Below, in pieces: positions 4,561-31,989 of a stretch of 64,000 bases of DNA (the first letter of the stretch is position 1; each line of letters opens with the position of its first letter). Both the position numbers and the translations under genes were made by a program. A model generated the notes under the pieces. The model did no database searches. It was not told the origin of the DNA and saw nothing but the letters and a program-made list of their open reading frames with translations. Origin of the DNA: Takakia lepidozioides (lineage: Eukaryota; Plantae; Bryophyta); assembly GCA_030704615.1 (NCBI GenBank), contig CM060733.1:47244001-47308000 (forward strand). Reading direction: 5' to 3'.

Positions 4561-5625
4561 TTAGATACTCATCAGTTGGTGAATCTGGTTGCACTTTCCA
4601 TGGCTCTGGAAAAATCCCACTGAAGGGAGGATTGTTTGCCGCCTTTCTTGGTGTGTCGTCAACAAGAACAGTGTCCTCATAAGTCCATTCTGGCCAGTCT
4701 GCCTACATTCTAGACAAGTTCTTGAAATATAATGGCTTTGAACAGACCCCTTACGGCATGGGAGGACTGGATCCTCGTCACAGTGAAGGGCATCCCACTG
4801 GAAAACCAGCTTAGTGTGGGCTGCAAAAATATAGTCCACCATTGGGAAGAAGTTGCGAGCTTGGCAACAAGACCACACCGCCACCTCAAAGTGTTCAAAA
4901 CACTTTTGCAAAAAGTCATAACAGCGTGGTCTCAAAACTACCATCTTCTTGTCACACATCTTCCCCACAAAACCTTTGGGAAGGGATGCAGGCCCATTAG
5001 CAGAATGAAAAGATTCACATAACAGACCATTTAAGTCCAAAATTAGTAAATGCTTCCTCGCTGGTCCAGGAAGTAAACTGTCATTTGGCTTCAACATGTG
5101 AACAAGAGAAATTAAAGCAACATGTTTGTTTGTTTTGTCCCCGTCTGCATCTTCCTCCCCATTTGAACTCCCACATACCTGCATACCAGAATCCGGTGTG
5201 CCAGGCGGCTCTGTCACCATTGCCCCCTGGACTGCTACTGCCTTTGTACGTGGCAAGGGCTGAATTTCCACGTGTACCTCACAGCTCGCCTTCCCTGTAT
5301 CCTGCTGCTGCTCGGTCAAATTCAAAAGATCATCAGTGACAGGAAGACATAAGGGCTTAGAGTAAGCACCAGTTACCGTCTGAAATTGGGATTCCAAACA
5401 ATTTGATACTGTCACAGCAGACGCATCCATCGTAGATATCATTGGTCCTAGGCCTGGTAGATTAATCCCCAATCTGGCCACAATGGCTTTCTGGTACTCA
5501 ATCATGCTCTGCATCTGTAATTTTAAGTCTGCCATGTCACGTCCTTGTGATTCCACCAGTTTGTCCAAGCCATCCATCCTGCCAACTACTGTAGAATATA
5601 CGAGACTTCCCTCCTGCCAATCCAT
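4561..5625 (-). pseudogene. Coiled coil plus FCP1/NIF (HAD-fold) phosphatase-like domain; likely 3' part of the TnpA-like gene
   Basis: KHLLILDLNGLL...LRPRCYDFLQKCFEHFEVAVWS...LVFQWD..HC. After a frameshift near 4735 it continues KPLYFKNL...TVLVDDTPRKAANNPPFSGIFP, with one stop. Confidence 0.75.
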
Positions 5626-5980
5626 GAAAACTTGCCCAAGTATGAATCAAACAAAAAAAACCTAGCATGAACAACGACTGGAAAGAAAACCCAGGCCAAA
5701 AGCCTTGAAAAAAACCCTAGCAACCTATGATGCAGCAACCACTCTAGCAAACGTGGAAAACACACTTATCCGCCTGTCACTCCCAGTTGACAACCGTGAC
5801 ACTGAACCCTCTTGAATTTCATATAATATAGGAGGGCACCCTGATAGGGTTTCCTGCAAATTAATTAATCCATGCCACAAACAAACCCATGCCACAAGTC
5901 AGTAAGCAATGTGAGGGCTGACTATATACACATAGCAATTCAATGAGGAACAAAATACAGAGTCATGATGATGTCACTTA

Positions 5981-6498: not shown

Positions 6499-6969
6499 AA
6501 CACTATTTTAATTAATTCTGGACTTTTGGCTTAAATCTGGACTAAACTTAATATATATTTGTATTAAAATTAATTGAAATATTAATAATATCATGGTGTA
6601 ATGTGTGATTGAACTTTGTGAAATTTCAGGTGATGTCATACTTGTTTCAAAATGTGTCATATAAGAGGTCCATTTGACATTGAAGTGCTCAATGTGAAGT
6701 AGCAGTATTGAACAATTCATTGAACGTCCACTTGGAAGTCGAATAAAGTAAAATTCCATTGCATGATCATGATAAACAAATGGGTCGCATCGAACATGGG
6801 CCAAACTCGTACTCTACCATACTCGATACAACTTGCTAGTAATTTTATTGATTCAAGAATCTTCATATGAAGCACAATGTTCACATACCACGCCATTGGA
6901 ATGAATCATGTTTTGGATCTGACAAGACAATAAAATATTAGAATAGGATGAAACATTCGGAAGAGGTAC

Positions 6970-8640
6970 TAGGGTAGTACAATAAGGTTTGGGGTGTAAC
7001 TAGAGAGAAGTGTAATAAGGTTTGGGTTTACAGTAAGGGTAAGGGTTTAGGGTTTGGATTTAGGATACAAAAAGACAAACAAATATGATGGACTCACACT
7101 CGGTAGAATTAAGAAATGGTTGAGGAATTTGATATCCCTGTAATCATTCTATCATACCTTATCCAACAAAAGAAAATATTAAAAGAGCATGAAACATTGA
7201 GAAGCGGTAACATGGTAGTACAATAAGGTTTGGAGTGTAACTAGGATAGTACACTAAAGTTATTGGTTTATGGTAAGATTAATGGTTTAGGGGTGATGGT
7301 AAAGGTAGGGTTTTCGGTTTGGGTTTAAGAACACTATTGGACAAACAAATATGGAAGACTCACAGTCGCTAGAACTTGGTGTGTGTTAGTAGGATATTAA
7401 AATAAAAATAAAATGGAGAAACAAATATTATGGAAGAGTCATTGGGCCGGAGAAGTATTTAGATTGAGGATTCGTCCTTGGAACCTGGTATTAAGATACA
7501 TATGGTTATGGTATGGATACTTCATTCCCATTTGCAGGGGAAGGGTAAGGGTTTAGACGTAACAATGGCGTAGGGTTCTGTTTAGGGTTCCCGACGAGGG
7601 TTTAGGGTTTGGGTTGAAGGCAGAAATGGTGAGCATACATGCCGAAAGACTCGCACTTGCTACAACTTAGTGTTGTTAATAAGGTAGTACTAAGCAAAAT
7701 AAAAATGAAGAACCTAATATTATGGAAGTGTAGTCATTGCATCGGACAAGTATTTAAATGAAAGACTTGTCCTTGGAACTTGGTATTAAGATACATAGAA
7801 AGCAAAGTTCGATAAAAAAAATGTAAGTGCATGTCAATCCAAACCAAAGGCAAAACCTTGCGCAAGGTGAAGGGCGAAGAGATTTGAATAACCATAAATA
7901 GTTACGGTTATGGTATGGATACTTCATTCCCAGTTGCAGGGGAAGGGTAAGGGTTTAGACGTAATAATGGCGTAGGGTTTTCCTTAGGGTTTTCGACGAG
8001 GGTTTAGGGCTTGGGTTGAAGGCACAAATGGTGAGCATACATGCCGGAAGACTCGCACTTGCTACAACTTAGTGTGTGTTAGTATGGTACAAAATGGAAA
8101 TTTGGTTACATTGAAGAGATTTGGATAATTAAAATGGTTATGGTTATGGTATGGATAGTTGATTCCCATTTGCAAAGGGAAGGGAAAGGGTTCTAGGGTA
8201 TTGGGTTAAGAGTAAATGTTTAGGGTTTTCTAGTAAGGGTTTAGGGTTTTTGTTTAAGTTACAAAATAGACAAACACTTATAGAAAACTCCAGACTTCGC
8301 TAGAATTTAGTGTTGTTAGTAGGGTACTAGTAAGCAAAAAAAAATGAAGAACCTAATATTATGGACAAGTATTTAAATGAAAGACTCGTCGTTGGAACCT
8401 GGACCTAGTATTAAGATGTAACATAGAAAGCAAACTGTAACATGCCTAAATGCATGTCAATCCAAAACAAAGGAAAAAGCTAGCGCAAATGTGAAGGGAG
8501 AAGATATTTCAATAACCATAACGGTTATGGCTATGGCTATGGTTATGGTATGAATAGTTCATGGGCCATTTGCAGAGAAGGGTAAGGGTTAGGGGTAATG
8601 CTAACAAAAAAAACAAGGTACTATAAAAAAGGTATGTCAA
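6970..8640 (+). repeat. Degenerate tandem repeats of a few hundred bp, rich in TTTAGGG/TAGGGTTT motifs
   Basis: 7503-7680 is nearly identical to 7905-8080. Recurring GGGTTTAGGG, GGTTATGGTATGG and GAAGGGTAAGGGTT blocks. Confidence 0.75.
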
Positions 8641-8861
8641 TCCTAAATCCTAAATTGCCAAAAAAATAAAAATATACACTATGAGATTTGGAAAGAAAAT
8701 GGCGTTATATAACGACTTTTGGGAAGCGCCTGGATCTCATGGGAGAAAATGGATCTGAAGAAAACATCAGAGAGGATAAAAAGTCAGACCACCAAATAAA
8801 AACTATGAGAAATAAAAATTGCTTAAAATTTGAACAACGGAAAAGGACATGTGAAATTCCC

Positions 8862-9392
8862 TGTCGTGCGCATACATATCGCTACACAACTACATCGCTG
8901 TCCAAACCACACCACATATATATGCACAATAAAGTAGTCTGCCACAATGATAAGAAAGCTTGAAAGGACACACACTCTCAACACAAGAAATATGAAATCC
9001 CTCAACATCACTCGTTAAAACAGAAGTCGAGCCAGGGGCACCCCAAGCTGTGGGGACTCCACCCCACAACAACCTACACTCCCATCATGAGCACACTCAG
9101 TCCTAAACGATGCAGGAGCTCGATCGCGCAGGCTCAACTCGAGAGAGATGAGCCACGCGACTGCCGCTCTCGTGAAGATAAGGCCGTTCAGGTGTCAAAC
9201 TAAACTTGACACCTGATTTAACACTTGACCTTAATCCAAGTGTTAAATACAAATAACTAGCTTTATTCTAGTTGTTTTCACACTGTGCTTATTTAACTTG
9301 ACAGCTGTCGTGCGCATACATATCGCTACACAACTACATCGCTGTCCAAACCATACCACATATATATGCACAATAAAGTAGTCTGCCACAAT
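8862..9392 (-). repeat. 3' terminal block of element 1 (sense Z-gc-X-Y-Z)
   Basis: 87-bp direct repeat Z at 8862-8948 and 9306-9392 (1 mismatch). X 9138-9303 is directly repeated at 20237-20402. Y 8948-9153 is repeated inverted at 20031-20236. GC spacer at 9304-9305. Confidence 0.95.
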
Positions 9393-9402
9393 CGCCCCCC
9401 TA
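9393..9402 (-). promoter_or_regulatory. Polypurine-tract-like motif directly upstream of the internal Z copy
   Basis: Sense AGGGGGGCG then ATTGTGGC. Element 2 has AGGGGGGTG then ATTGTGGC at the same position (about 23246-23255). Confidence 0.65.
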
Positions 9403-9650
9403 GCTGGTGGGTAGGTCCCTCTACCTCCAGATAGGTACAAGATGTAATAGCCACAGCCGTACTAAGTCCTCTATCACTGCCCCTATTGCACTCAAACTCT
9501 ATAGACCAAGAGGCCGGGTACAAGAGTAGCCCCATCGTTAGTCGCCATCTTGCAATCTGTGAACTTGAGCCAGGACCTCGTGTGTTCAAGGTCTCCTAGT
9601 AGCTGGGCCTTGCGTTTCTTGTTAGCCTTCCATGGTTGTATCCACTCCCA

Positions 9651-9800
9651 CTATCCAATGCAATGTGGACATAACCAATCCCCATCCGGAACCATCTCAA
9701 GAGGTGGAGTCAAGCATCCCATATGCCAACCTCTAGAGCATCGATCACACACCAGCATGGTGGCTGCCCCTTTAGCAGACCCACACAACATGCACCTCAA
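9651..9800 (-). pseudogene. PHD finger at the integrase C-terminus (element 1)
   Basis: CMLC...MLVCDRCSRGWHMGCLTPPLEMVPDGDWLCPHC, a C4HC3 pattern. Confidence 0.92.
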
Positions 9801-9941
9801 ACCTGCAGATACCACTGCCAGGTTTGGGTCAATCCTGCCATCGACATTCGGAAGGTGACATGGCGCACAATTACGCACATGGTCCTTCCAAGTTATGCCA
9901 TCCCGACCCTCCAAGACCAAGACGCCTGAAGGCAAGACCTC

Positions 9942-10900
9942 TCAAACCCTCAAAATAACACGTCCTGCAGTCACATCCAGGGTCGTAGGAGCAGTCTGCT
10001 GCAGATAGACATAGTCACCAGGGTTGAATCTCCGAACCCCAGGACGATAGCCCCCACCACATATGGTAGCATACCTCAACGTATCACGGTGTTGTGCAAT
10101 GGCAAGGTTCTCGAAAGCCATGGGCATGACTCTCTTGAACAACTCTGCACGCTGCTCACATGCACGTGCCCACACGTTCGGATCGTCAAGGTTAAGAACT
10201 GTAGCAGCTTCTCTGCGAATGGATGTAGGCAAATCCGGCTCTCGGCCAAAGAGAAGAAAGTATGGTGAGAAGGAGGCAAGTGATGCTTGCTTGCTGAACC
10301 TGTAGCCCATGGCTAACCAGGGTAACTGAAGGTCCCAATCTCCTAGGTGTCCCTTCTGCAAGCCATACTTGCGCAAACCCCTCTTTACTGTCTGAACAAC
10401 TCTCTCTGCCAAGCCATCGGCCTCAGGATGATCCCGAGAAGTGGTGCGGTGGTCTATCAAGGCCTTGTCACACAAAACCTGAAACTCCCCCAAGAACTCT
10501 CTCCCTTGGTCCGTGAGTACCTCAGCTGGAGCACCGAATCGGCTAAGCACACAATCCAAGAATGCATATGCAGCTCCCTCACTAGCCTTATCAGGCAATG
10601 GAACCAATTCAATCCACTTGGAGAAGTGCTCCACCATCACCAACACGTACTTGTTGTGGCGCATGGTCAGTGGCAATGGCCCTGCGAAGTCAAGACTCCA
10701 CCTGTAGCCCAATCCCATGATCGGAAGAGGGTGCAATTGTGGAGTAAGGGCGTTGAATGAAGCACGCACCCTGTCATACACCATGCACCTAGCCACAAAT
10801 TGTTGCACCTATGTGTGCATACCACGCCACCAATACTGCCCCTGCAGTAGACTATGAGTGCGTCGCACCCCAAAATGCCCCAACTCCTCATGGGCATGCC
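9942..10900 (-). pseudogene. DDE integrase (element 1)
   Basis: HEELGHFG zinc-binding region; WSLDFAGP, LTDQGREF and ADGLAER catalytic triad; SPYFLLFGR. In-frame stops at 10809 and 9942. Confidence 0.95.
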
Positions 10901-11289
10901 GCACTAACCGTGCCCGCTGTGTTGGGTGAGGCACAATCCTCACTCGACCATCCTCCCACACTCGGAGCAGGTGTATCCCCTCCCACTTGAACCTCTTGGC
11001 TCGTTGTAGGATCCGATCCCTCTCCTTGGCAGTCACAGTGGCTGCAGTGTCTCCAGTGCGGAGGTAGTCCAACACAACTGAATCCTCATGTATATCTTTG
11101 GCGCCACCTTGCTCATTGCTGGCCTCAGGGTCCTCAGACACTTGATCTACTGTCATCCATGTTGCAGGTCCAACCTGGCCTTCCGCTGCCAAGATACACA
11201 GAAATGCAGATGCATGCCATTCGGGCACCATCTCCTCGTCCGTCTCACCATGCCACCGAGCTCCAGTGTCATCCTGCTGGCTCGTGCAT

Positions 11290-12446
11290 GGATTGCGACT
11301 CAACCCATCTGCATTGTGATTGACTAAACCCGGTCGATGCACCACCTGAAAGTCATACTCTTGAAGGATGAGTGCCCACCGTGCAAGCTTCCCCGTAAGC
11401 TTGTCTGACTCCATCAACCACTTGAGTGGTTGGTGATCCGTGACAAGGGTGAAGAGATTGTCGTATAAATAGCACCTGAAGTGTGCCACGGCCCACACTG
11501 CAGCTAAGCATTCTCTCTCATATGAGCTATACTTAGACTCTGCAGCATTGTTCGAGCGGCTAGCATAAGCCACTACGAACTCTCTTCCCTCATCATCCAC
11601 CTGTGTGAGCACCGCTCCAAGCCCCAGCATGCTCCAATCTGTATGCAGCTGAAAAGGACGCCCCCTGATAGGTCGTCTCAAGATGGGCGCCGAGGTCAAC
11701 CTCACCTTGAGCTCTTGAAAAGCTTGTTCTTGCTCACCTTCCCACTGCCACTCCTGGTCCACCTTGGTCAGCTTGGTTAGAGTCTTTGCAATGGCACTAA
11801 ATCCCTTAACAAACCGTCTGTAATAGTTTGCTAACCCCATGAAAGCTCGAACTCGGCTCACATCCGTGGGGCGTGGAACCTGTGCAATGGACTCTACCTT
11901 AGTCTGCTGTACCCCCAATCCTCCAGGATATATCATGTGACCCAGATACTCAATCTGGTTGTGGAAAAACTTGCACTTGCCCGGATGTAACTTCAATCCG
12001 TGCGTCCTCAAGCACTCAAATACCCCCTGAAGGTGTCTTTCATGCTCCTCCACCGTAGCACTAAAGATGATGATGTCATCTATGTAGCACCGAGCAAACT
12101 CCACCCCTGCTAGAATCCTGTCCATGACTCTTTGAAACTCAGCGGGAGCGTTTTTAAGCCCAAATGGTAAGAACTGCCATTGGTATAGGCAATCCTTCCC
12201 GTGCTCATTGATCCCCCAGAATGCCGTCTTTTGCTTAGAGACATCCTTCTTGGCTGGCATCACTGTGGCTGAAGCATACTCTCCACCAGAGAGCTCCACC
12301 AAACCTGCCTCCCAAAGATCCTGAGTTCTCATCTGAATCAAGGACCTCTCCATGTCACTGTATCTATAGGGTCTCCGAAAGATTGGCGTGTCAGTGGCCA
12401 ATTCAATGCGAATCTCTTGACCCTTCAGTGCTCCCAAGTCTTTCAA
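11290..12446 (-). pseudogene. Reverse transcriptase and RNase H (element 1), with an in-frame internal deletion
   Basis: LPFGLKNAP, YIDDII, LHTDWS, VVAYASR, TDHQPL, ADGLSR. Lacks about 59 codons present in element 2 between KKD and KQKT (near 12238). Confidence 0.95.
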
Positions 12447-12929
12447 ACTGAAGGCAAAGCAATTCCTATAAGCCCTCAGGAACCGCCGTATACGTTGTCT
12501 CTCTCCTCCGGTGACAATGGGTCCAATGTCAGGCTCCCAATTGTCCTCTGTAACTGCAACCTTAAGTCCAGTGGGCTTAGAGGTAGAGGACGCGTCCCGT
12601 GGTTGCTATGCTGCAACCTCTTGAGCAGTACTCCATTCCTGCTCAGTCAATGACAAGGCCTCATCCTGCCCCATCATCTCATCATTGAGAACCTCCTCCT
12701 CCCGAGAAGAATCCCCAACCTCATCCATCACAGCTGCCTTGGCTGCCAACTCCCTCTGAACCTCGAGTACCTCCCACGTGTGCCATGGATGTCTACACCC
12801 TGTGGTCCTCACCGGCTCGCCCCCACTCGCTGCCTGTACCGTCTCGGTAGGCAGAGAGACCGTCAAGGGAAGTGCACTCCGCACTCTACGTTGCTCAACC
12901 ATAGCCAAGCTGATAATCCAGGTCAAGCA

Positions 12930-13875
12930 ATTGAGATCCATTGCTTGCCCCAACACCTGACGACGTGATGCCTCAGAAAGAGAAGGCACCGCCGTGGTCC
13001 CAGTGGAAAACCCCATAGCCCGCTCTCGCTCGTCGGCATTAGGCTCCACTAACTGTTGCATCTGAGCATCCCACAGGAGGCCAGGTCCACCATCCCGAAA
13101 AGCATGGGATCCTGGGAAGCTGAGCAGTGTAGGTAATGCTGCTCATGGTTGACCCACCCTGTTGACCACTGCCAAAGGCGAATGGTCATCGTGTCTCACA
13201 CGTTGAGACTGCCTCCCTGTGTCCAAAATGCTGTCCACTATGAGGTGTGTTGGCCGCTGCACCCCATCAAATGCATGCTTGAGCAGTGCGGGTGGCATTA
13301 AGTTAATCCACCATAGCCGTGGACGATGAGCCCGTGATCCCACTGCAGCTGCATCCAGCAGCACTGCTGACCCAAGCCACGACCGGACTTGATGCACACT
13401 GGCCATCACCCTGGCCCGAGAATCGCCCATCAGTGGCACATTCTCCAAGATGTATGCTGGTGATACAGCTTGATGAAGCTGCAAGTGGCACAAAATCCGC
13501 ACCATCTCCCAAAACAGACATGTCCTCGAGTCTCGCAATTCATTGTCATGCCCGGCTGATGAATGCCCTTGGCAGGGCCAACCTGCCACTACCAGATCAA
13601 TGGAGCCAACCTGCTCCAAATCGGCGCCCCAGCAACAAAATGTCTGCTGGCAAGGCTTATTGGTATCCACGAACTGCAGACACTGGCAACAAAGCAGGGT
13701 ACTGCTGTACCAACTGAGCAACATGGCGCAGTGAGACGCGTCGTGCAGTCTCATCCCTCTCCACATACAGGTAATGCCTTACCCGCACAAGTAACGCCTT
13801 ACCCGCACACCTGCCTGTAGCACAGCAGCCAATCCGGTGCTGATCCCGCCAAACAAGTCCAGAAGGCAAATGCCT
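12930..13875 (-). pseudogene. C5-cytosine DNA methyltransferase domain within Pol (element 1)
   Basis: Motif I LDLFGGI, IV AGWPCQ, VI ENV, VIII HRPRLWW, IX ERERAMGF and X LGQAMD in non-permuted order. Disrupted by a 20-bp duplication (13769-13808), stops and a frameshift. Confidence 0.9.
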
Positions 13876-14289
13876 TCATCCGGATACTGCCACACAATAG
13901 GTGTGGTATCCAATGGTGACAACTGAGGTGGTCCTGGTGCAATACCCGCATTCTCCTCCTCTCCTGACGGTACAAAAGCCTCTACCCAGGCTTGTTGCAC
14001 CCGTCGATCAGCAACCTGCTGCAAATCCTTGCTTGTACCCCACAATGGAGTGTGAGCAACCATGGCAGGCAACTCCGCCATACCATGCATGTCATCCTGC
14101 TCTGCTGGAGGTGGCACATCTTCTGCATGGGCATTGCCTTCCAGCAACTCTCCAGGCCAACTAACTGCAGCTGTAAAGGCGGCTAGTGTTGGCATCTTGC
14201 CCCGTTGGGCAGCCGCAATACCCCCAATGAATGTCACAGGGAGCTGTGCACGACGACCATCCCCTGACTGCCATCCAGGCCTGTAGAAT

Positions 14290-14600
14290 GCTGACTCCTC
14301 CCAAAAGTCCAGGGTGAAGCCCATGGGGTATAACTCTGCCCCACCAACGAGGACATCGTAAGAGACCGCGTTTGTCACAATGGCCTTGGCTCGCATGACT
14401 GAGCCATCGATAGGATGATCCGGCTGCAGTCTAATGGCCAACTGATGCCGTGTCATGCCCCGAGCCTGCTCTGATCCTCCCAGAGATGTCTGTATCTGGA
14501 AAGGACAAGGCTCCATATCCGCCTCCATGAGGCCCAAACCTGCAATAGCAGCTCTGCCCAACATCAGTGGCTGAGCTCCCGAGTCCAACAAGACCCGCAA
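14290..14600 (-). pseudogene. Retropepsin-like aspartic protease (element 1)
   Basis: VLLDSGAQ...YDVLVGG. Confidence 0.8.
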
Positions 14601-15006
14601 TGGCCGGTACTTCTTGTCTGCCTTCCAGTAACTCCGCAGAAGATGAAGTGACCTCCCCACTCTCACAGAGTGTTGCTGCTAGTCTAAACACTGCAGCTGG
14701 TCTTACCCCCAGCGTCGCAATCATGGTTGCCAAGAACAGTGGGGCTTGACACACAGAGGCAAGGCTGCCAACAACAGTGGGCTACACGAGGTGGCTAATG
14801 GCAAGAAACCTCCGCCTCGGTAACAGTCGGGCGAGAACTAGGTGCCATGGATGGCGTTGACACTGTCTCCGCCAAGGTGAATGACTGAGGCAGCCTCGCC
14901 TGATGGCTTGCCTCCCCACGTTGTGGATCCAACTCCACCTCTGTACCTCGTGGTTCAGGAACTCGTGCTGCTCCTCGAATCACGGCTGCAGCAGACTCCA
15001 CCTGCT

Positions 15007-16608
15007 CTAGTGGTAGTGCTGCTCCGCACATGAATCCCATGCCTCCATATCTCCTCCCTCGGGAGCAGGAGGTGGACCATCCCGCCTGGGAGCCGGTACC
15101 GCCTGAGCTATAGCCATTGCAGCGAGCCTCTGCTCTAGCTGCTGAAGCCGGTTGGCCATGCCTTGGTCAACACCCTGACCTCCGCGTCCGTGGCCATGTT
15201 GAGCTTGCCCTTGGCCTGCACCTCGTGCCCGACCACCTTGTCCTCTCTGGGCTGGTCCACCTCGCCCCCGGCCACCATTGTTCCCTTGGAACTGGCCTGG
15301 GCGCAACTCAGGATGCAAGTCATAACACTGGGCATCTCCATGCCCATACTTGCCACAATGCCCACACCGCAACTGTGTAGGCTGTGTTTGTGCCGGCCTT
15401 TTGCCACTCTCTGGGCAATCTCTCTTGACATGGGGTCCTCCACATGTCCAACATATCACCCCTGGTTGCTGTTGGCCTGCAAAAGATGCCACGGGCCTTT
15501 GCACCTGAGGTCCCCTGTAAGCTCCATGGAACTTGGGTTGGGAAACCTTGCCCCCCTGACCACGCTGTTGGGCAGTCCCTTGTGCCTGTGGGCTGGCAGC
15601 TGCTCCTCGTGCAGGCATGTCCTTGCCAAACCCAATGGTAATAACTCGCTCCTCCACCATGTTGAGCTCAATCCGCTCAGCCAGCAGAAACACATCTGCT
15701 AATGTGGGTTGGGCTGCTTGTAACAGGGTTGCATCCCGCACCCTTCTCCTGAGCTCCTTGTCCAAAATTCCATACCAGAACTGGATTGCCTGAGCTTCAG
15801 TAACCCCTTGGGTCACACTTATCAAGCGCCTCATACGAGTGTAGGCCTCTCGCAAGCTCTCACTGGGTTTGCGCTGGAAGTCTTACAAACTTCGCAGCTT
15901 CTCTGTCCGTACACCTTGGTAGTTCCTCCGCAACTCCCGGAAGAACTCCACCACCGGGTTGAATCTAGGCACATGTGTTGTAGTCGTGGCAGGAGGAGTA
16001 GTAGCACCTTTTGAACTGGTACCACCTGCAGAAGTACCGGCACTACTTGTTCCACTACTAGTGCTGGTAGTGGGAGATATTGGTACTGATGCAGCTACTG
16101 GTCGCATCGTGCCTCGAGTAATGGAGACGTAGTCAGGTGACCAATACATCCTCCACTCCTCAATCTCTGCTTCATGTCCTCGCCTGAACTCGTGGTAATC
16201 GTCCATAGGTGGGCCTTCCAAACGCTGGAACAGTCCCTTCCACGCCATGAATGGGATGAATAGCTGTGGATTGCGCATCTGCTGCAAATCACACCAGCTG
16301 TCGAACTCCTGGATAAAGTCATCCAACTCGATTGTGCCCACAGCTCCAGAGTACCTACGAGGCCCCTTGGTAGCTCCATACATCTCCTCCATGTCGTCCC
16401 ACAACAATGGCGAATGAAACTGCACACCTGTTGATGAAGCCTCCGAGTCTGTGTCTGACTCTACAGTAGTTGAGGGTGGCGGTGAAGGTGGTCTGAACCG
16501 AATACCTCGTCTTGTGAACCCACTCTCACTGTTACTGCTTGTAGCTGTACTCCCCTCAAAACCCTTGGGTAACTCCGTAATGACACTCACAATGTGCACC
16601 TCCTCCAC
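15007..16608 (-). pseudogene. Gag (element 1) with two zinc knuckles
   Basis: Q...ES.REAYTR major-homology-like segment; CWTCGGPHVKRDC and CGHCGKYGHGDAQC. Frameshift near 15885. Confidence 0.85.
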
Positions 16609-16697
16609 GTGACACTATAAGGCTCTAGTACTAATCTAATAGTGACACGGGTGGGCACCTGTTGCAGTCTAAGGGTCATATCCCAATGGCTCAGGGC

Positions 16698-16940
16698 ACC
16701 TGCACCTGCATCCACCGCAAGAACTCCTATGGTTGGCTGGTCATCAACCCAGCCTCACCATAGAAGAAACACTGGTGGTCTTGCTGGTCATCACTCCAGC
16801 CTCACCACCGACAGCATACTCTAGGATTGACCGGTGATCAAATCCGGCCTAATCCCTATGAAAGCAAGCGCCCACACAAAACCAACATGGCGCACAGTCA
16901 AGCATGCAGGTGTTGGGGGGATCCAAACACAAGAAATCAA
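16698..16940 (-). promoter_or_regulatory. Conserved structured leader RNA upstream of gag (element 1)
   Basis: Three related stem-loops (16728-16762, 16774-16809, 16822-16858) enclosed by CACCTGCAT 16703-16711 and ATGCAGGTG 16904-16912. Near-identical to 30727-30970. Confidence 0.7.
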
Positions 16941-17126
16941 AACATCAACACCCCCACACCAAAATCCAGCTGCAATGCTGATCCTGCAGAATATCCTAGC
17001 CCAAAACCCCGGACTGACTGGCCTCCACCAAGAGAGGCTTTGGCAACTACGAGTACAAGGTAATGAAAATAGTACAAAGATGGAGGGGAAGAATAGAAGC
17101 CCGCCCAAGCAAGATCTAATCCTGAT

Positions 17127-17876
17127 CTATGCTATCAACTTCCAGACTTCTCTCAAAGTGCCTCGCTCTGCTTGATGGTAAGGTGTAGGAGGTATATCTA
17201 TGTCCAGAAACCTGCCACTAACCTTGTCCCAAGCTACAGTAGCTCGCTCTAACCAACCCTCCTCCTCTTTCTGCCAGGTAGAGACAAAGCAACACTCTGC
17301 TATCTCCCGCTCACTGAACACTTAAGAAAGCAAAGGTAGGGTCTGATAGTTTCTCAACTCGAAAGCTTTGAGACGGTTGCGGGTGTCCTCATTGCGAATG
17401 ACTGCATCTCCTTCAAATAGAACAAACTTGTCCTCGCTAATGAACCCCCGCTTGTGGTTGCCTTGTGCAGAGCGTGTCCGGCTGCAACGCTGTCTGATTG
17501 CACAAACTTGTGTAGCTCCTGCTCCTCTGCTCCAGTACACCACAGCCTTGTGGCTGAACACCTTGGTCCCCGGGGCTGTCTTTGGCTGTGTTCCAAGCCT
17601 AGCTTTCACCCACTTTGGTATTTCACTTACAGCTGCAGAACTGCTGGCTCCAACAGAGTTCTGACTGTCCAAAGCGATATTGAGGCCCTCAACGCCAACT
17701 ACAGCAGTCTGTTGTCTACTGCCAATGCCTGACTCCCAGTATGCAATCAACTCGTCCAACTGTTCTCCACTCAAATCAGTCTGAGTTCCTTGGGAAACAT
17801 AAATCTTGTCCCCTTGTGTGCACAGACTAAGAGAAGAGACCTGCCCTTCAATTACGTCCTCATTTCCCCCAGCCAT
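17127..17876 (-). CDS. Extra ORF of unknown function upstream of gag (184 aa, plus 64 aa in frame after one stop)
   Basis: ATG-initiated ORF 17322-17876 abuts in-frame ORF 17127-17321. Same strand as gag-pol. No recognised domain. Confidence 0.4.
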
Positions 17877-18297
17877 ACAAGGAGGACATCCACAGATTTG
17901 TCTCTCAAATAGACCAGAATTGGTTCTAGAAACAGAATTGTGGATCTTTCACGACACACTCACACTCTAAAAATTCCATAGATTTTTAGCAGAGTCCCAA
18001 AAACAGAAACTAGATAGGTAGATTTCCCCTTTCTGCAGCTATCCCCTCAAAAACTGAGTCAAACGGAGCTCATTTGACAAAGATATGACCAACCAGGCTC
18101 TTTAAACATTTAAATTAGATCAAAAAGGCCCTTTTTTTTTTTTTAACACCAAAATGTTTTTGCCATTACAACCTGTTCCCAGGTTATCTATGGGTTCCCA
18201 AGGCCGTTCCCTTTCAGGCTTCTCCAGGCACCAAGAGCTCATTAACTCCAAAACTCGACCTCAGTTGGGTGGGGTATCACACCCTGGAGGCGATTTG

Positions 18298-18465
18298 CTT
18301 TTCTCTGCGCGTGGGCCTACCTCCTCGAGCTTTCAGGACGGCAAGGCAGCAGCCATGTTTACAGCACGCAGGAAGATTCAGAAGGAGAAGGGGCTCGAGC
18401 CTGATGAGTTTGAAGAGGCTGTAGCCCAGGCCTTATTCGACCTAGAGACTACAAACCAGGAATTG
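18298..18465 (+). pseudogene. RPS7: Captured 40S ribosomal protein S7 5' fragment (5'UTR and first 37 codons)
   Basis: ATG at 18355: [37 protein letters not shown], preceded by a pyrimidine-starting leader. Confidence 0.9.
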
Positions 18466-20030: not shown

Positions 20031-20402
20031 GCTCATCTCTCTCGAGTTGAGCCTGCGCGACCGAGCTCCTGCATCGTTTAGGACTGAGTGTGCTCATGAT
20101 GGGAGTGTAGGTTGTTGTGGGGTGGAGTCGCCACAGCTTGGGGTGCCCCTGGCTCGACTTCTGTTTTAACGAGTGATGTTGAGGGATTTCATATTTCTTG
20201 TGTTGAGAGTGTGTGTCCTTTCAAGCCTTCTTATCACTCGAGAGAGATGAGCCACGCGACTGCCGCTCTCGTGAAGATAAGGTCGTTCAGGTGTCAAACT
20301 AAACTTGACACCTGATTTAATACTTGACCTAAATCCAAGTGTTAAATACAAATAACTAGCTTTATTCTAGTTGTTTTCACACTGTGCTTATTTAACTTGA
20401 CA
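20031..20402 (-). repeat. 5' terminal block of element 1 (sense X then inverted Y), with a 16-bp inverted repeat
   Basis: GCTCATCTCTCTCGAG at 20031-20046 and CTCGAGAGAGATGAGC at 20237-20252 flank the inverted segment. About 3 mismatches per repeat against the 3' copies. Confidence 0.95.
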
Positions 20403-20930
20403 TCCCTCTTAAACCAGGGCCAAAGATAAGAAGTATGAAAATGAAATGAAATGAAAATTTGGTGCAGAAAAGTCGTAGAGCTTAGAGGGAAAATGGAGGA
20501 AAACCGCAGAGAAAAAACTTCAGGACTGGCAAATTGAAAAGTATGTCAACAACGATTGAGTAAGGCTCCTCCTAGTGGGAGACTTCAGTGGAAGAATTGG
20601 TTATGCGAAAAGCAAGTCCAATGTTTCAGAGAATGATTGGAAATAGGCTATTTTCTTCCATTGTTAAAAACCTCTTTGACCGAATTTGAAGACTCCAGTG
20701 GTCGTGCCCGCCCATTTTGTTCTTGTGATCTATATGTTATGTAGGCGAAACTCCCCCACAGGGTATTTTTTGTTGACCAGGACGTACAGCAGGCCAGAAT
20801 CCAGCAAACCAGAAACAAAGGACGAGAACGTTCACTGGACATTCGAGGTTCAATGCGACATAAGAATATTGCAGAAAGAATCCCCCAACGCAAACAAGAA
20901 AGGCCATATAGAGAAGAAAAAATTTATTTC

Positions 20931-22704: not shown

Positions 22705-23245
22705 TGTCATGCACCTAAGCATCGTGCCACAACATACATCGCTATCCACCATACATTCTAAGCACACAATCCTAGAAAGCTATGCCACAATGATAATGAA
22801 AGTGAACACAAGGGAAACATTCCACTCATGAATCCACTCAATCACATAAACTAAGTCAAGCCAAGGGCACCCTTGCTAAGGGAATCCACCCTACAAAGCC
22901 CTCAACACACTCCCTCTCAATACCTAGAGCTATGGAGGTGAGAGAGGCTCATGGAGGTTCAACTACAAGAAGATGAGCCCTCCTCAACGCTCACAAGGGG
23001 AAAATCCATCCCCATGTCCCAAGTGAGGTTTGACACCTCACTTGGCATGTGAGACCAAATGAAGTCCCAACACACAAAATACAAATATAAATATCCAAAT
23101 TGTCCTAGTTAACTAGAAGTAGGTAATTCTAGTTAACCATGACTAAAACCATGACAGCTGTCGTGCACCTAAGCATCGTGCCACAACATACATCGTTGTC
23201 TACCATACATTCTAAGCACACAATCGTAGAAATCTATGCCACAAT
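22705..23245 (-). repeat. 3' terminal block of element 2 (sense Z-gc-X-Y-Z)
   Basis: 87-bp direct repeats at 22705-22791 and 23159-23245. Junction ATGACA-GC-TGTCG at 23151-23163. Confidence 0.92.
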
Positions 23246-26200
23246 CACCCCCCTAGCCGGTGATTAGGTCCCTCTAACACCGGATAGCTGACAAGTATTC
23301 ATCTCAATAAGATCATCACTTGGTCTTCAATCACACATGTCCCAATTTTTTAAAGTATATGGATCAAGAGGCCGGGTGCAACGAGAGCCCCATCATTAAT
23401 CGCCTACTTGCAATCCATGATCTTCAATTGAGTATCCATGGCGTTGAGCTCCTACAAGCTAGACCTTGGATCACTTGTCAACTCCACCATTGTCATGCCC
23501 ACTGCCTATGTCCAAGGCATCGTGGACACAACCATTCTCCACTAGAAACCTCCTCAAGTGGCGGTGTCAAGCATCCCATGTCCCACCCCCTTGAGCATTT
23601 GTCACACACCAGCATGGTTACGGCACCACCAGCATGCCCACATAGCATGCAACGTAACCCTGCAGGTACCACTGCAAGGTTGGGATCTATCCTCCCATCC
23701 ACATGTGGAAGGTGACATGGCGCACAATTGCGCACATGGTCCTTCCATACCGTGCCATCTCGACCCTCCAGAATCAACACTCCTGAAGGCAACACCTCCC
23801 GGACCCTTAGAATCACACGCCCTGCTGTGACATCCAAAGTCGTAGGCGCTGTCTGCTGCAGATACACATAGTCCCCAGGGTGGAGACGCCAAACACCTGG
23901 CCGATATCCCCCTCCACGTACAGTGGCATACCTTAATGTGTCTCGGTGTTGGGCAATAGCAAGGTTCTCAAAAGCCATAGGCATGACTCTCTTGAACAAT
24001 TCTGCCCGCTGGGCACATGCTTGTGTCCACACATCCGGATCATCAAGGTTGAGGACTACTACAGTCTCCCTACGAATAGATGCAGGCAAATCTGGCTCTC
24101 GGCCAAAGAGAAGGAAATAAGGTGAGAATGAGGCAAGTGAAGCTTGTTTGCTGAACCTATAGCCCATAGCTAGCCAAGGCAGCTGAAGGTCCCAATCTCC
24201 TAGGTGTCCCTTCTGCAAACCGTACTTGCGCAAACCTCTCTTGACTGTCTGAACAATTCTCTCCGCCAAGCCATCAGCCTCGGGATGATCCCGAGAAGTA
24301 GTGCGGTGATCTATCAAGGCTTGCTCACACAAAGCCTGAAACTCCCCCAAGAATTCTCTCTCCCTGGTCCGTGAGTATCTCGGCTGGAGCACCAAAATGG
24401 CTAAGCACTCGATCTAAGAATGCATACGCAGCCCCCTCACTTGCATTGTCAGGCAATGCCACCAGTTCAATCCATTTGGAAAAGTGTTCCACCATCACCA
24501 GCACATACTTGTTATGGCGAATCGTCAGTGGCAATGGGCCTGCGAAGTCAAGACTCCAACGATAGCCCAAACCCATAATGGGTAAATGATGCAATTGTGG
24601 AGTAGGGGCGTTGAAAGAAGCCCGCACTCTATCACACACCATGCACCTTGCCACTAACTGTTGCACATCCGTGTGCATGCCTCGCCACCAATACTGCCCT
24701 TGCAGCAAACTATGAGTGCGTCGCACCCCAAAATGTCTCAACTCCTCATGGGCATGGCGTACCAATCGCGCTCGTTGTGTTGGATGAGGCACAATCCTCA
24801 CTCGTCCATCCTCCCATACCCGGAGTAGGTGAGTCCCTTCCCACTTGAACCTCATGGCTCGTTGTAGGATCCGATCTCTTTCCTTAGCAGTCACACTGGC
24901 TGCTGTCTCTCATGTACGAAGGTAGGCCAACACTGCTGCATCTTCATGCACATCCTTAGCACCACCAAGCTCATCACTGATCTCCGGATCGTCATGCACA
25001 CCATCTACTTGACCAATGTTATGGGATGGACCAGCTTGAGCTCCCATTGCTAGGATGCACAAAAAGGCAGATGCATGCCATCCTGGCACCATCTCCTCAT
25101 CTGTCTCACCATGCCACCGAGCTCCAGTATCATCATGCTCACTCGTGCATGGATTACGACTCAATCCATATGCATCCCGATTGACAATACCGGCTTGATG
25201 CACCACCTGGAAGTCATACTCTTGAAGCATAAGTGTCCACCGTGCAAGCTTCCCTGTAAACTTGTCTGACTCCATCAACCACTTCAATGGTTGGTGATCC
25301 GTGACAAGGGTGAAGAGATTGCCATAGAGGTAGCATCTGAAATGTGTCACTGCCCATACCGCAGCTAGACACTTCCCTTCATATGAACTATACTTCGTCT
25401 CGGCATCATTGTTCGAGCGGCTAGCATATGCCACTACGAACTCTCTTCCCTCATCATCCACTTGTGTGAGCACTGCTCCAATCCCCAGCATACTCCAATC
25501 TGTATGTAGCTGGAAAGGCCGCCCCCGAATAGGCCGCCTCAGAATAGGTGCAGAAGTCAATCGAGCCTTGAGTTCCTCAAAGGTTTCCTCCTGTTCCTCC
25601 TCCCACTACCACTCCTGACCCACCTTGGTCAACTTGGTAAGAGCCTTTGCAATGCTGCTAAATCCCTTGACAAACCGTCGATAGTAGTTTGTCAACCCCA
25701 TGAAAGCACGCACTCTGCTAACATCTATGGGGCGTGGAATGCGTGCAATGGCCTCCACCTTCGTCTTTTGAACACCCAATCCTCCAGGGTATATCATGTG
25801 GCCCAGATACTCAATCTGGTTGTGGAAGAACTTGCACTTCTCAGGGTGCAATTTCAACCCGTGCGCTCTCAAGCGCTCAAACACCACCTGAAGGTGTCTC
25901 TCATGCTCCTCAACCGTAGCACTAAAGACGATGATGTCATCAATGTAGCACCGGGCGAAGTCTAGCCCCACGAGAATCCTATCCATGACCCTGTGAAACT
26001 CTGCAGGAGCATTCTTCAGCCCAAACGGTAAGAACCGCCATTGGTACAAGCAATCCTTCTCATGTTGGTCAATCCCCCAGAATGTCGTCTTTTGCTTATC
26101 AGCCTCTTTGATTGGCAACTGGTGGTAACCAGATCGCAAGTCCAATGTGCTAAACACCTTTGCATGCCCAATGGCATCAAAGATCTCCTCTGGAGTTGGC

Positions 26201-27039
26201 ATGGCATATCTATTGGACTTAGTCTGACGGTTCACAGGACAATAGTCCCCACACATCCTTCTTTCTGTCCAATTGCCATAGATATCCTTCTTAGCTGGCA
26301 TCACCGTTGCCGAGGCATACTCCCCGCCTGACAACTCCACCAATCCAGCTTCAAACAACTCCATAGTCCGTGACTGGATCAATGACCTCTTCATGTCACT
26401 ATACCGGTAGGGCCTTCGAAAGATTGGCGTGTCACTTGCCAAATTAATACGAATCTCCTGACCCTTCAAACTCCCCAAATCCTTCAAACAGAAGGCAAAG
26501 CAATTTCTATAAGCCCTTAGAAATCGCTGGATCCTCCGTCTCTCTCCTCCAGTGATTGTAGGTCCAACATCTGGTTCCCAATTGTCCTCAGTGACTGCAA
26601 CCTTGGGTACACCGGGCTTGGAGGTAGGAGACGAATCCTTTGGTTGCTAGATAGCAACCTCTTGGGCCTTGTCCACCCAATCTGACTGTGGCGTAGCCTC
26701 CACTTGCTCCACCATAGCCACCTTGAGAACATCCTTTGAGCAAGAAATATTCTCAACCTCTTCAAAAACCTTGGCTACCTTAGCCTCCAACTGATCCTCG
26801 GTCCATGGCTCTCCCCACTCCTCATACTGTTGCTTGAGAGATCCAATGACTCTCTCTTTGCGCATCTCATCCCACATCTGCCATGGGTGTTTGCAACCCA
26901 CGATCTTGTGCTCGCCCCCACTCAGTGCCTCAACCGTCCCGGTTGGCAGGGAGGATGCACCATCCAATGGGAGTGTAGAAGTAGCCATCAATGCTTGCAA
27001 TCTCCGTTGCTCAGCCATGCACAAGCCAATTATCCATGT

Positions 27040-27965
27040 CAAGCAATTTATATCCATTGCCTGACCCAATACCTGGCGTCGTGATGCCTCTGACAGAGCT
27101 GGCACAGCTGTAGTGCCCATGACAAACCCCATTGCCCGCTCGCGCTCATCCGCATTGGGCTCCACCAATTGCTGTAGCACACTGTCCCAAATTAACCCAG
27201 GACCATTGTCTCGAAAAGCATGAGACGAGGGAAAGCTCATGAGTGTAGGCAAGGCTGTACATGGCTGCCCCACTTGATTGACCACTGCTAGAGGTGGACG
27301 GTCATCATGTCGCACCCTCTGTGATTGCCTCCCTTGGTCCAAAATGCCTCAACCGTGAGATTGGGTGGCCGTTGAATGGAATCATATGCTCTCTTGAGCT
27401 CTGGTGGTGCAAGATTGGTCCACCACAATCGAGGTCGATGCACGCGTGATCCCACCGCTGCTGCATCCAATAGCACCGCCGATCCAATCCAAGACCGCAC
27501 CTGATGCACACTGGCCATTACCCTGGCCCGAGAATCCCCCATAAGAGGAATATTCTCCAAGATATAGCCTAGAGGTTGCACTTGCCTCGTCTGCAAGTCC
27601 CACAACACTCGCAACATCTCCCAAAACAAATGCGATCGTGCATCATGCAAGTCATTCCCATGACCTGTGGGAGAGTGTCCTTGGCAAGACCATCCAGCTA
27701 TCACCAAGTCAATGGCACCATGCCGGTCCAAATCTTCCGCCCCCAGCAAGGTAATGTCTGCTGGCAAGACCTTTTGATACCCTTGAATTGCTGAGAGAGG
27801 CAACAACTCAGGATACCGGTGTGTGAGCAAGGCGATGTGGCGCATAGAAATACGCCGAGCTATCTCATGCTTCTCCACATACAAGTACTTGCGTACCTTA
27901 ATCCCTGCTTGCAACACTCCTGCAAGCCCAATGCTCATACCTCCAAACAGGTCTAGCAAGCAAAT
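27040..27965 (-). pseudogene. C5-cytosine DNA methyltransferase domain within Pol (element 2)
   Basis: LDLFGGM, AGWSCQ (PC altered to SC), ENI, HRPRLWWTNL, ERERAMGF, LGQAMD. One frameshift near 27345. Confidence 0.9.
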
Positions 27966-30726
27966 CCTTGAGTCAGGTGGTTGCTAGGTAATGGGCACTG
28001 TATCCAAATGAGCTAACTGAGGAGGTCCATGTGATGTCACTGAACTCCCCTCACTCACCAATGGATAGGCCTCCTGCCATGCTTGGTGCACACACTCGTC
28101 TGCTACTCGATGCAAATTCCCAACTGTACCCTACAGTGGAATATGAACAGGCACATAAGGAAGCAAATCAGCCTTGTATGCCAATTATTTGTACTCATCA
28201 GGTGGTGGCCTATCATCTGCATGGCTATTGCCCTCCAAGAGCTCACCATCCCAAGCCACCACCCCTGAGAATGCAGCCAATGTGGGCATCATGTTCCTAT
28301 GATCCACCGCTACATTCCCAATAAACCGCACTGGGAGCAGTGCACGTCGGCCATCTCCTGACTGCCATTCTGGCCCATAGGATGTTGTTTCCTCCCAAAA
28401 GTCCAGAGTGAATCCCATAGGGTATAACACCGCCCCACCAACAAGCACATCATAAGACATCGCGTCCGTAACAATGGCTTTAGCTCTCATGACTGAGCCG
28501 TCCGTAAGATGATCCGGCTGCAATCGAATGAAGAGCTCATGGCGTGTAATCCCTCGTGCCTTCTCTGAACCGCCCAAAGATGTTTGAATTTGGAAAGGGC
28601 AAGGCTCCAAATCCGCCTCTGTAAGGCCCAAGCCTACAATTGCTGCTCTGCCCAACATCAATGGCTATGCTCCGAGTCCAACAAGACCCGCAGTGGCCTA
28701 TACCTCCTCCTGGCTAGGCCACCCAATTGAAACACACCATCCTGATTGTCCACCAGGACTACCCCAGGAGTCACCATACTGCGCTCAATGGCTGGCCTAG
28801 CTGGCAACTCCTGCAACCTTGCAGCTGCCGCTTGCCATGGCGCAGCTGTGGCTGTCTTCACCCTTGAATCCAAGGCATTCATGCATTGCACCTTATCCGC
28901 TATCCCTACAGATAGTGCCGATGCATCACCACTCTCACTGAGTGCAGCTGCCAGTCTAAACACTGCAGCTGGCCGCATCCCCGACATTGCAACTGTCGTG
29001 GCAGAAAACAATGGAGCTTGGCAAATCACCGTAGCCGCCCCCAACAATGTACTGGCTACACCTTGCTTTGCAGTACCACCCACAAGCATTTCCCGAGCCA
29101 TACCAACTCTCCCCAATGGCACTCGTGGCTCTACCTCTGACACACTTGGGCGAGCGGGTGCCATCGATGGCATAGTTGGCACTGTCTCAGCCAATGTGAA
29201 AGACTGTGGAAGCCTTATCTGCCGACTTGTTTCCCCTCTTTGTGGATCAAAATCCACATCCGCTCCTCTTGGCTCAGGAGCATGCGTTGCTGCTCGAGTG
29301 AAAGTAGCTGCAGAGTCCACATGCAATGGTCTTGCAAGTGCGGCTCCACACATGAAGCCCATACCAATCTGGTCTTCCCTAGGCATAGGAGGTTGTGCAG
29401 GTGGGGCTTGAACCTCAGGCCTTGGAGCTGGCGCAACATGAGTAGTGGTAGGTTGTGCCTGTGCCGGCCCTTTGCCTCTCTCCGGGCAATCTCTCTTAAC
29501 ATGGGGTCCTCCACAATCCCAACATGTCACTCCCGACTGTTGTTGGCCTGAGAATGAAGGAAGTGACCTCTGCAATTGCGATCATCTCTGTCCTTCCCTG
29601 GGCTTCGCCTGAGCCCCTTTGTTGCCTTGAGCACGTTGGGGTAGTGGTTGTTGTTGGCTAGGAGCCTCACTTCGTTGTGTCTCCTTACCGAACCCCACCA
29701 TGACCACTCGCTCCTCCACCATATTGAGCTCTATCCGCTCTGCCAGCAAAAACACGTTTGCTAGGGTGGGTTGGGCCACTTGTAGGAGAGTTGCATCCCG
29801 CACCCTTCTCCTCAGCTCCTTGTCCAATATCCCATACCAGAATTGGACTGCTTGAGCTTCTGTAACCCCTTGGGTTACGTTTATCAAGCGCCTCATGAGC
29901 GTGTAAGCCTCCATTAAACTCTCGGCAGGCTTTCGTTGGAACTCTTGCAAACTCCGTAATTTCTCCGTCCTTATCCCTTGGTAGTTTCTCCTTAACTCCT
30001 CGAAGAACTCCACAACTGGGTTAAAGGCAGGCACGGGTGTTGGTGCTGCAGCAGGAGCTTGGGTGGACTTCCCAGCTCTTGTTCCACTTGACGTCCCACT
30101 GCTGCTTGCAGAAGCTGCCGGTGTCACCACTGCCCTTGTGCCTCTAGTGATGGAGACATAGTCAGGTGACCAATACACCCGCCATTCCTCAATCTCCACC
30201 TCATGTCCCCGCCTAAACTCATGGTAATCATCCATGGGCGGCCCCTCAAGGTGCTGAAACAGCCCCTTTCATGCCATAAAAGGCGTAAACAGTTGTGGAT
30301 TGCGCATCTGCTGCAAATCACACCAACTGTCAAACTCTTGTATGAAGTCATCAAGCTCGATGGTGCCCATAGCTCCAGAGTACCTACGTGGCCTCTTGGT
30401 AGCTCCATACATCTCTTCCATCGTGTCCCACAGCAATGGCACGGAAATGACTTGCACCCTCGGCGAGAATCCTCCTGACTCCGAGTCTGACCTTCCTCAG
30501 AAGACACTGAAGGTGACAGTGGCCTAAACCGCACACCTCGTCTTGTATACCCACTAGTATTGCTGGTGCTCGTACAGGCGCCCTCCTCAGCAACTGGTGA
30601 CACCTCCGTGATGAAAACTCACAACCACACCTGTTGTAAACTTGTCTCTAATCCTCCTTTCCACAAGGTAACCGGGTAGAGAACCTGTTGCAGCTTATGG
30701 CTTAGACTACTAGGTTCGTAACATAA

Positions 30727-30970
30727 ACCTGCACCTGCATCCACCGCAAGCACTCCTATGGTCTGCTGGTCATCAACCCAGCCTCACCATAAGAGAAACA
30801 ATGATGGTCTGACTGGTCATCACCCCAGCCTCACCACCGACAGCACGTTCTAGGATTGGCCGGTGATCAAATCCGGACCAACCTCCTATGAAAACAAGCG
30901 CCCACACAAAGCTAACATGGCGAACAGTCAAGCATGCAGGTGTGGAGGGGATCCAAACACAAGAAAATCA
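30727..30970 (-). promoter_or_regulatory. Conserved structured leader RNA (element 2)
   Basis: Homolog of 16698-16940; closing helix 30732-30740 with 30934-30942. Confidence 0.7.
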
Positions 30971-31384
30971 ATACAGCAACTCCCCCACACCAAAAACACT
31001 CCACAATGTCGCTTCTGCAATGACACCCCAGCCCAAACCCGGACTGACTCTTGCCTCCACCTACGGAAAGGTTTTGGCCTACAGAGAGGGTGGAAGACTA
31101 CAAGGAAGAGAGAGTAAAGCAATTCATATCACAGCATGCTCTCATCCCACTACCCTATCTCCACACTCTCTTGAACAATAGACAAGACTACCTTTCAAGG
31201 GTCTCTCAAATAACTCTCCATGAGCCCTCAAGAATATGTCTCTCAAACAATCTTACTAATCCTTGCACGATGGGACTCCAAAACAGTACACCAAGGCCCC
31301 AAGCTTGCCAAAACTTAGCCCTCGAGGACCCCAATAGTCCCTCACACAAGTCGCCAAAGACTCCTCAAGCTCGCCAAATATTGG

Positions 31385-31515
31385 CCTCCAAGGACCCCAA
31401 ATAGTCCTCCAAAGAACTCCAAATGGTCCTCCAAATGGTCCTCCAAACAGTCCTCCAAGGACTCCCAATGGTCCTCCAAATGGTCCTCTAAGGACCCCAA
31501 ACAGTCCTCCAAGGA
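31385..31515 (+). repeat. Degenerate 12-bp minisatellite (GGTCCTCCAAAT-like)
   Basis: Repeated GGTCCTCCAAAT, AGTCCTCCAAGG and GGACCCCAAA units. Confidence 0.8.
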
Positions 31516-31989
31516 ATGTAGTTCCAAGGTAAATTATTCCTTCGTTGCGTTTTCATTCCATCCAGGATGTCGAGTGCTCAAGGGACAATTTTCTGTGCTT
31601 GCATGTTGTTGCCCCTCCACTCCTCCCGTCGTTCAATAGAAAAACATCTCCAACATCGACACAGCGTGACCCTGAACTGCTGGCACAATGTTCTGCACCA
31701 AAGAGGCGAAAAAGAGCCCCCGAACCATTTCTTTCCTCTACAGGAAATCTTTCCAACGGACAAAAGCCTAACAAGAAAAAAAGAGCGGACGCCAAACACT
31801 TGAGGACTCCCTCGGATGTTGTGGCGCCTCGTCAATCCAAGCCCGCGGGAATCCACTGTTCTTCTACAAGACATTCCAATAAGGCTTCAATGGTACATTT
31901 CAAAACAATTTCTCCACTTTCGTTTGCAGTTTGTTTTGATGTCCCAAACTAACTCCGTAATTTTTATACAAGCGAGTATGGGATGCTCG

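Follow-up and report, generated by a model that had tools for sequence, protein, structure and literature searches.

An LTR-internal CA-GC-TG palindrome as a putative integrase cutting site in methylase-bearing Gypsy elements of Takakia lepidozioides and their relatives

Among the closest described systems is KnitGypsy-Dnmt3 of the alga Klebsormidium nitens, in which DIRS-like repeats accompany Gypsy domains and no mechanism is offered for the combination (de Mendoza et al., 2018, PMC5890265). The available text on this element gives no junction sequence, target duplication, primer or mechanism (PMC5890265). The elements studied here resemble it in carrying a Dnmt3-like methylase in a Gypsy pol and in having repeats in the order A-coding-B-A-B (PMC5890265). 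From another direction, palindromes at LTR-LTR junctions are known to be cut in vitro by integrases of retroviruses (PMC1905944, PMC1180852). The layout is thus already known from an alga and unexplained; what is new here is an account of its junction and a specific, testable route proposed from the DNA sequence. The literature searched offered no mechanism for such a layout in a Gypsy element; Repbase reports, theses, subscription journals and figures lay outside that search and may record the junction. Two other candidates were set aside: the available passages on Chlamydomonas Gypsy-7a and REM1 contain no such layout, and Troyka elements have CG..CG ends and a 3-bp duplication and occur in animals only (PMC12440569), against TG..CA and 4 bp here. 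The available text of further reports has no bearing on the layout (bioRxiv 10.1101/2022.06.16.496473, PMC9940879, PMC2774666, PMC6890710, bioRxiv 10.64898/2026.05.21.726589).

The window, a stretch of 64,000 nucleotides from T. lepidozioides, holds two related elements (Table 1). Inserted copies of this group start and end at a palindrome, GACA-GC-TGTC, that lies inside the LTR, and on balance we lean toward the reading that they do so because integrase cuts there with a 2-nt stagger, rather than by trimming the ends of the cDNA.

Table 1. Coordinates of the two elements and of their repeats in the window.
Feature	Positions	Strand	Basis or remark
Target site duplication, left, 4-bp TCCC	8858..8861	.	
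B2 (X), 87-bp repeat, element 3' end, ends in CA at 8862	8862..8948	-	86/87 vs 9306-9392
A2-B2 join, putative join of both natural cDNA ends	8945..8952	-	B2 starts at PPT-primed strand start; ragged in relatives
A2 (Z plus Y), 355-bp: promoter part, predicted start site, R-U5	8949..9303	-	Direct 290-340-bp A repeats in relatives
Predicted 12-nt self-primer, transcript 5' end	9138..9149	-	12/12 complementary to 20035-20046; same geometry in other families
CA-GC-TG palindrome	9298..9310	.	Spacer 9304-9305; putative integrase cutting site
B1 (X'), true LTR start, adjoins PPT	9306..9392	-	
Polypurine tract (PPT; G run)	9393..9402	-	Sequence; relatives have G run at same place
pol: protease, C5 cytosine methylase (Dnmt3-like), RT, RNase H, DDE integrase, PHD finger	9654..14980	-	Pfam, translation, PDB
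gag, two zinc knuckles, stop-broken	15010..16614	-	Translation
Self-priming PBS	20031..20046	-	16-bp inverted repeat of 9138-9153 and 20237-20252; not tRNA-type
R-U5 part of 5' repeat A1, inverted in this copy	20047..20236	+	186/189 identical to Y; between two 16-bp inverted repeats
5' part of A1 (Z'), TG start at 20402	20237..20402	-	163/166 identical to 9138-9303
Target site duplication, right, TCCC	20403..20406	.	
Second element 3' end	22705..23245	-	B2 22705-22791, A2 22792-23156, junction 23151-23163, B1 23159-23245
Second element PPT, pol, gag	23246..31078	-	5' repeat outside window

The first element occupies 8862-20402 on the minus strand with TCCC on either side (8858-8861 and 20403-20406) and reads, in the sense direction, A1 - internal - PPT - B1 - GC - A2 - B2. 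Here B is the X of the preliminary description and A its Z plus Y; the two copies of each differ at 1 of 87 (B), 3 of 166 (Z) and 3 of 189 (Y) positions. The palindromic sites that the preliminary description reported, TTGACA-GC-TGTCG at 9298-9310 and ATGACA-GC-TGTCG at 23151-23163, are both present in the sequence. The word GACAGCTGTC occurs twice in the window where 0.05 copies are expected, a count reached in 0 of 100 shuffles; since the two sites are homologous, they count once, as a conserved site shared by two related copies whose pol is 81% alike. Joining the right end of the first element through GC to its left end does recreate the internal site, as had been claimed, but with near-perfect and not exact identity (86/87 on the X side, 163/166 on the Z side); in the second element only the X side is checkable, its other end being outside the window, and it agrees at 81/87. 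In run X2, 39 contigs with differing flanks all join precisely at 9306; the 40 variants shown, of 46 in total, all lie outside 9298-9310. The family is very abundant in the host, with 95,382 contigs of run X2 mapping to 15 kb.

The repeat unit had been proposed as Z-gc-X, of about 255 bp and starting at the PPT. It does start directly after the PPT, but its size is about 445 bp, because it comprises the whole of B-gc-A: Y belongs to the direct repeat A (290-340 bp) in all four relatives that retain both A copies, in one contig of run X6 the 5' end belongs to the window's own family and is un-inverted, and the inversion of Y was seen in this copy only. For the same reason DIRS-type inverted terminal repeats are out as a part of the mechanism. 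The inversion itself (20047-20236), situated between self-primer and PBS, could reflect a priming error, later recombination or misassembly; the strand-change joint sought for it was absent among the 14 joints examined, which carries no weight either way. This copy has other peculiarities. Its 5' leader of about 2 kb (18000-20000) has far lower cover in runs X2 and X5 and so is rare in the family, a weak match of 32 aa to ribosomal protein S7e near 18373-18468 is possibly a captured gene piece, and at 12238-12239 a segment of RT of about 180 nt, present in other copies, is missing.

The coding region places the element in Ty3/Gypsy, with gag, protease, Dnmt3-like methylase, RT, RNase H, DDE integrase and PHD finger. 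The pol order is that of Ty3/Gypsy, protease-RT-RNase H-integrase, with the methylase between protease and RT. The integrase matches PF00665, and its top PDB match is Ty3 Gag-Pol (E 1.9e-12), which bears out the retroviral-type integrase of the preliminary description; it is a DDE enzyme. The methylase matches PF00145, and its PDB matches, weak though they are (E about 7e-4), are all eight to DNMT3A. No tyrosine recombinase was matched by Pfam among the 34 ORFs scanned; the DDE integrase stands in its place. The pol frame at 9654-14980 has in-frame stops, and both window copies are broken by stops. The ends are TG..CA and are flanked by 4-bp duplications, within the 4-6 bp of Ty3/Gypsy and exact in 10 of the 12 two-ended insertions (one pieced from two assemblies); one of the others matches at 3/4 and one has none. 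Two complete direct terminal LTRs are absent: the ends fall inside the LTR, and the layouts are A-I-B-gc-A-B or A-I-B, where I is the internal region. The element is a Gypsy element by every protein test and departs only in lacking whole terminal LTRs.

Other sequences in the window include a DUF7869 ORF between the two elements (21693-22706, minus strand), whose cover suggests repeated sequence; CACTA/EnSpm-type remnants (Transposase_21, DUF4218, DUF4216) at 35798-41626, followed by repeats spaced 700-860 bp; a MITE-like element of about 750 bp with nested inverted repeats at 45415-46161; minus-strand ORFs with a NIF phosphatase-like domain (4564-5646) and of kelch/beta-propeller F-box type (47071-48258); and degenerate tandem repeats at 6923-8599 (units of about 236 and 402 bp) and 31330-31520 (11-12 bp).

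Relatives with RT, RNase H and integrase, most with PHD and many with methylase, were found in Marchantia, Klebsormidium, chlorophytes and metagenomes. They form one clade with the window copies (support 99 in a quick tree of 60 rows), the nearest named relative being from Marchantia. The RT-RNase H proteins of K. nitens cluster with the window copies (99, quick tree); they are PHD-Gypsy records without methylase, and none is identifiable as KnitGypsy-Dnmt3. A scan of viral contigs gave 58 distant loci, 25-32% identical, which served as outgroup only. The metagenome scan gave 76 loci, the best 76 of 493 confirmed stretches. Among these best 76 of 493, the B repeat of two families is present in 52, which resolve into 40 insertions: 21 in which B runs straight into flank, 13 of the form B-gc-A-B (L090 was moved to this class by hand), 3 with B-gc-A and no B2, and 3 cut inside B. 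The other 24 loci of the same best 76 comprise 9 without a 3' end, 3 whose junction was recognised by motif (L059, L061, L086) and 12 with none recognisable. A scan of genome contigs (2 clade members among 50 loci) added two junctions, L135 and L136. These two are young plant-type elements of the clade in a cyanobacterial bin, likely contamination, and the B repeats of L136 are identical.

Altogether 23 junctions were compared, 16 found by the repeat, 5 by the motif itself and 2 in the window. They share the consensus CACGACA-GC-TGTCA, and all 23 have a spacer of 2 nt (GC 13, AC 5, GT 3, AT 2). Conservation of the GC spacer and palindrome across families had been set as a test of the original idea, and on this count it held. 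Changed spacer bases number 12 of 46 and are all G>A or C>T, with the terminal C changed in 5/23 and the terminal G in 3/23. The terminal C and G, which change at a similar rate, were necessarily intact at insertion, and the spacer variants are as expected from deamination of methylated C after insertion.

Priming can be read from the same sequences. The 12 nt following A1 are not tRNA-like and have their partner within A. Twelve of 15 elements show this match, with 0-2 mismatches, at the homologous position, and in 11 of the twelve a TATA box stands 29-32 nt above it; the box is mutated in L068, and in the first element of the window a weak TATA-like box lies 32 nt above the predicted self-primer at 9138-9149. 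The match is absent in the remaining 3 of 15, whose A1 is shorter. The primer sequence varies among four families and the PBS covaries with it, whereas control 12-mers almost never match equally well. This is the Tf1-type geometry in four families, with the PBS complementary to the first nucleotides of a transcript whose start site is predicted, and it argues strongly that the transcript begins in the middle of A and that its first 12 nt prime as in Tf1. In A of L059, L068, L082 and L135 an inverted repeat of the predicted start itself lies just before it, making a DNA or RNA hairpin around the self-primer. With a mid-A self-primer and a PBS after A1, the first strand jump would go into A2 and skip B2, so that B2 would have to be remade and attached in every cycle. 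Self-primer and PPT together predict an ordinary linear cDNA with B-gc-A at each end. L059 and L135 have internal-B-gc-A-PBS in one piece, like 1-LTR circles, and were left out of the evidence for circles, since collapsed repeats would look alike.

Of the two junctions in the 3' repeat, the comparison points to A-B, located at 8948/8949 in the first element, as the new one. This join is ragged: 13 copies, nine from one family and four from another, show 9 forms (6 and 3, respectively), among them short microhomologies and two 17-nt insertions similar to neighbouring sequence. The length of the GC site is constant while the A-B join varies. The start of B2 coincides with the PPT boundary in every family that has two copies of B, at distances of 87, 113 and 176 bp from the palindrome, and the insertions L100 and L123/L124 stop at the A end with no B after it, as expected from a free DNA end. 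From the ragged forms, the PPT-aligned B2 and the copies that stop at the A end, the A-B join looks like the place where the natural ends were repaired, and CA-GC-TG like an internal cutting site that is inherited, not a join made in replication. The earlier identification of the palindrome with a circle junction formed during replication is not supported: the palindrome lies inside U3 and would be copied from RNA, and the end-to-end join is at A-B and imprecise. Some A-B joins may themselves be inherited; one is shared by both window copies and one by L068 and L090. Slippage could account for part of the raggedness, the A end being of low complexity in one family. On the tree, B-then-flank and B-gc-A forms are mixed, with 10 changes against 8.7 when shuffled, on a weakly resolved topology (2 of 26 branches starred).

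We infer each step of the route that follows from the sequences compared above. A mid-A transcript would, very probably, prime with its first 12 nt at the site just after A, and use of the PPT, as in standard LTR replication, would lead to a linear cDNA of the form [B-gc-A]-internal-[B-gc-A]. Integrase would then act on the upstream LTR, cutting each strand of its palindrome after CA and producing two processed ends with GC overhangs, whose insertion would make the 4-bp duplication and lose GC. The unused natural ends, the A end and the B start, would be joined imprecisely into A-internal-B-gc-A-B, either before insertion, as an incomplete and asymmetric circle, or just afterwards by host repair. 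Dead-end A-internal-B copies would result if both LTRs were cut, or if a 1-LTR circle were opened at its sole site. Preference for the upstream site may, speculatively, reflect that this LTR turns double-stranded first. The preliminary description had pictured a molecule with two units, one of them opened in its middle and GC lost, and the genomic form does read that way. That the productive form needs an extra joining step looks wasteful and counts against the model. A-internal-B copies could come from double cutting, from 1-LTR circles or from later deletion between B1 and B2; L066 resembles a B1/B2 chimera or an assembly chimera, so at least some of these copies may be secondary.

The ragged A-B join and the layout would also be accounted for by a closed 2-LTR circle as the obligatory intermediate, with two equivalent palindromes either of which integrase opens, permuted insertions being lost later. 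Such a circle would suit the intact target duplications of all five full A-I-B-gc-A-B copies and the ability of foamy virus and HIV integrases to cut 2-LTR junctions (PMC1180852, PMC1905944), and A-I-B copies would come from 1-LTR circles. Its two equivalent sites predict insertions opened at the other unit, which the preliminary description had proposed to look for. When the search was run, neither B nor A was found within 700 nt upstream at any of 14 visible 5' ends, 7 of them with B-then-flank 3' ends. Given 13 complete and 21 B-then-flank copies, unbiased cutting would leave about 13 of the 21 permuted, and the chance of 0 in 7 is about 0.001 by a hand calculation that ignores later deletion and assembly collapse. 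Deletion between tandem A copies or assembly collapse could in fact hide permuted copies. Insertions stopping at the A end would be unexpected from such a circle. The closed circle as an obligatory form, also part of the original proposal, is for these reasons doubtful, and the lack of permuted copies favours cutting on an asymmetric intermediate whose ends are joined before insertion or directly after it.

That lack is just what would be predicted if the RNA spanned A to B2 and the internal B-gc-A were a template from which both ends are rebuilt, as in Ngaro/PAT-like elements, with integrase trimming GC from linear cDNA ends and the A-B join inherited. Tyrosine recombinase elements have the same A-ORF-B-A-B layout (PMC5890265), and a single A-B join is common to both window copies. 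Such a template is hard to reconcile with the conserved mid-A self-primer and the PBS after A1, from which the first jump lands in A2 and skips B2, and nothing was seen that would prime at B2 or halt synthesis at GC. It also leaves unpredicted the ragged joins, a B2 starting exactly at the PPT and copies ending at the A end, and we consider it unlikely, a shade more so than the closed circle. A site arising as a by-product of local rearrangement, nested insertion or misassembly, with no role, might be suspected from the private inversion and other damage of the first element; it is contradicted by the same site and layout, with matching duplications, in several otherwise differing families, and has next to nothing left to recommend it.

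Cutting at the internal palindrome, with joining of the cDNA ends, would have consequences beyond this locus. We think it rather probable that in a green-lineage Gypsy clade, from charophytes to land plants and possibly chlorophytes, the att site has moved from the cDNA ends to an inherited U3 palindrome, so that integrase would act as a site-specific endonuclease in every cycle and a copy would be replication-competent only through end-joining of its cDNA. The use of joined att sites by retroviral-type integrases in vivo has long been disputed. The clade offers a natural case in which all intact ends lie at the palindrome, and a short, defined substrate; if the model is true, it is a natural system in which cutting of an internal att palindrome is the sole insertion route, and a 2-LTR-type end join, a side product in retroviruses, becomes a required step. 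The model would also explain the DIRS-like repeats of KnitGypsy-Dnmt3, and it suggests that split repeats can arise from ordinary LTRs. Having no paired terminal LTRs, such elements are likely missed or misdated by LTR finders.

PAT, Ngaro and VIPER elements likewise have A-ORF-B-A-B, with an internal B-A junction equal to the joined ends, but use a tyrosine recombinase and are usually without target duplication, whereas in the window element a DDE integrase goes with a PPT, TG..CA ends and a target duplication of 4 bp. DDE enzymes of IS3/IS911 and IS30 open abutted ends across a spacer of 2-4 nt, as proposed here; these are DNA transposons, however, in which the junction is newly made by the transposase. 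In retroviruses, cutting of the 2-LTR junction is a side route and the spacer is longer. Among LTR elements, Tf1/Sushi and Tcn1 share with the window element a PBS complementary to the predicted 5' end of their own RNA, but they have whole LTRs at both ends, and chromodomains in Tcn1, where the window element has a permuted LTR, a PHD finger and a methylase in pol (PMC4600332, PMC6317226); neither PHD nor methyltransferase is mentioned in the available text of PMC6317226. Similar in enzymology is the cleavage of 2-LTR DNA in foamy virus and HIV-1, where a DDE integrase likewise acts on a CA..TG palindrome inside duplex DNA (PMC1180852, PMC1905944). There the palindrome is made by joining cDNA ends, whereas in the clade described here it appears to be an inherited U3 site with a 2-nt spacer, at which all intact ends are seen.
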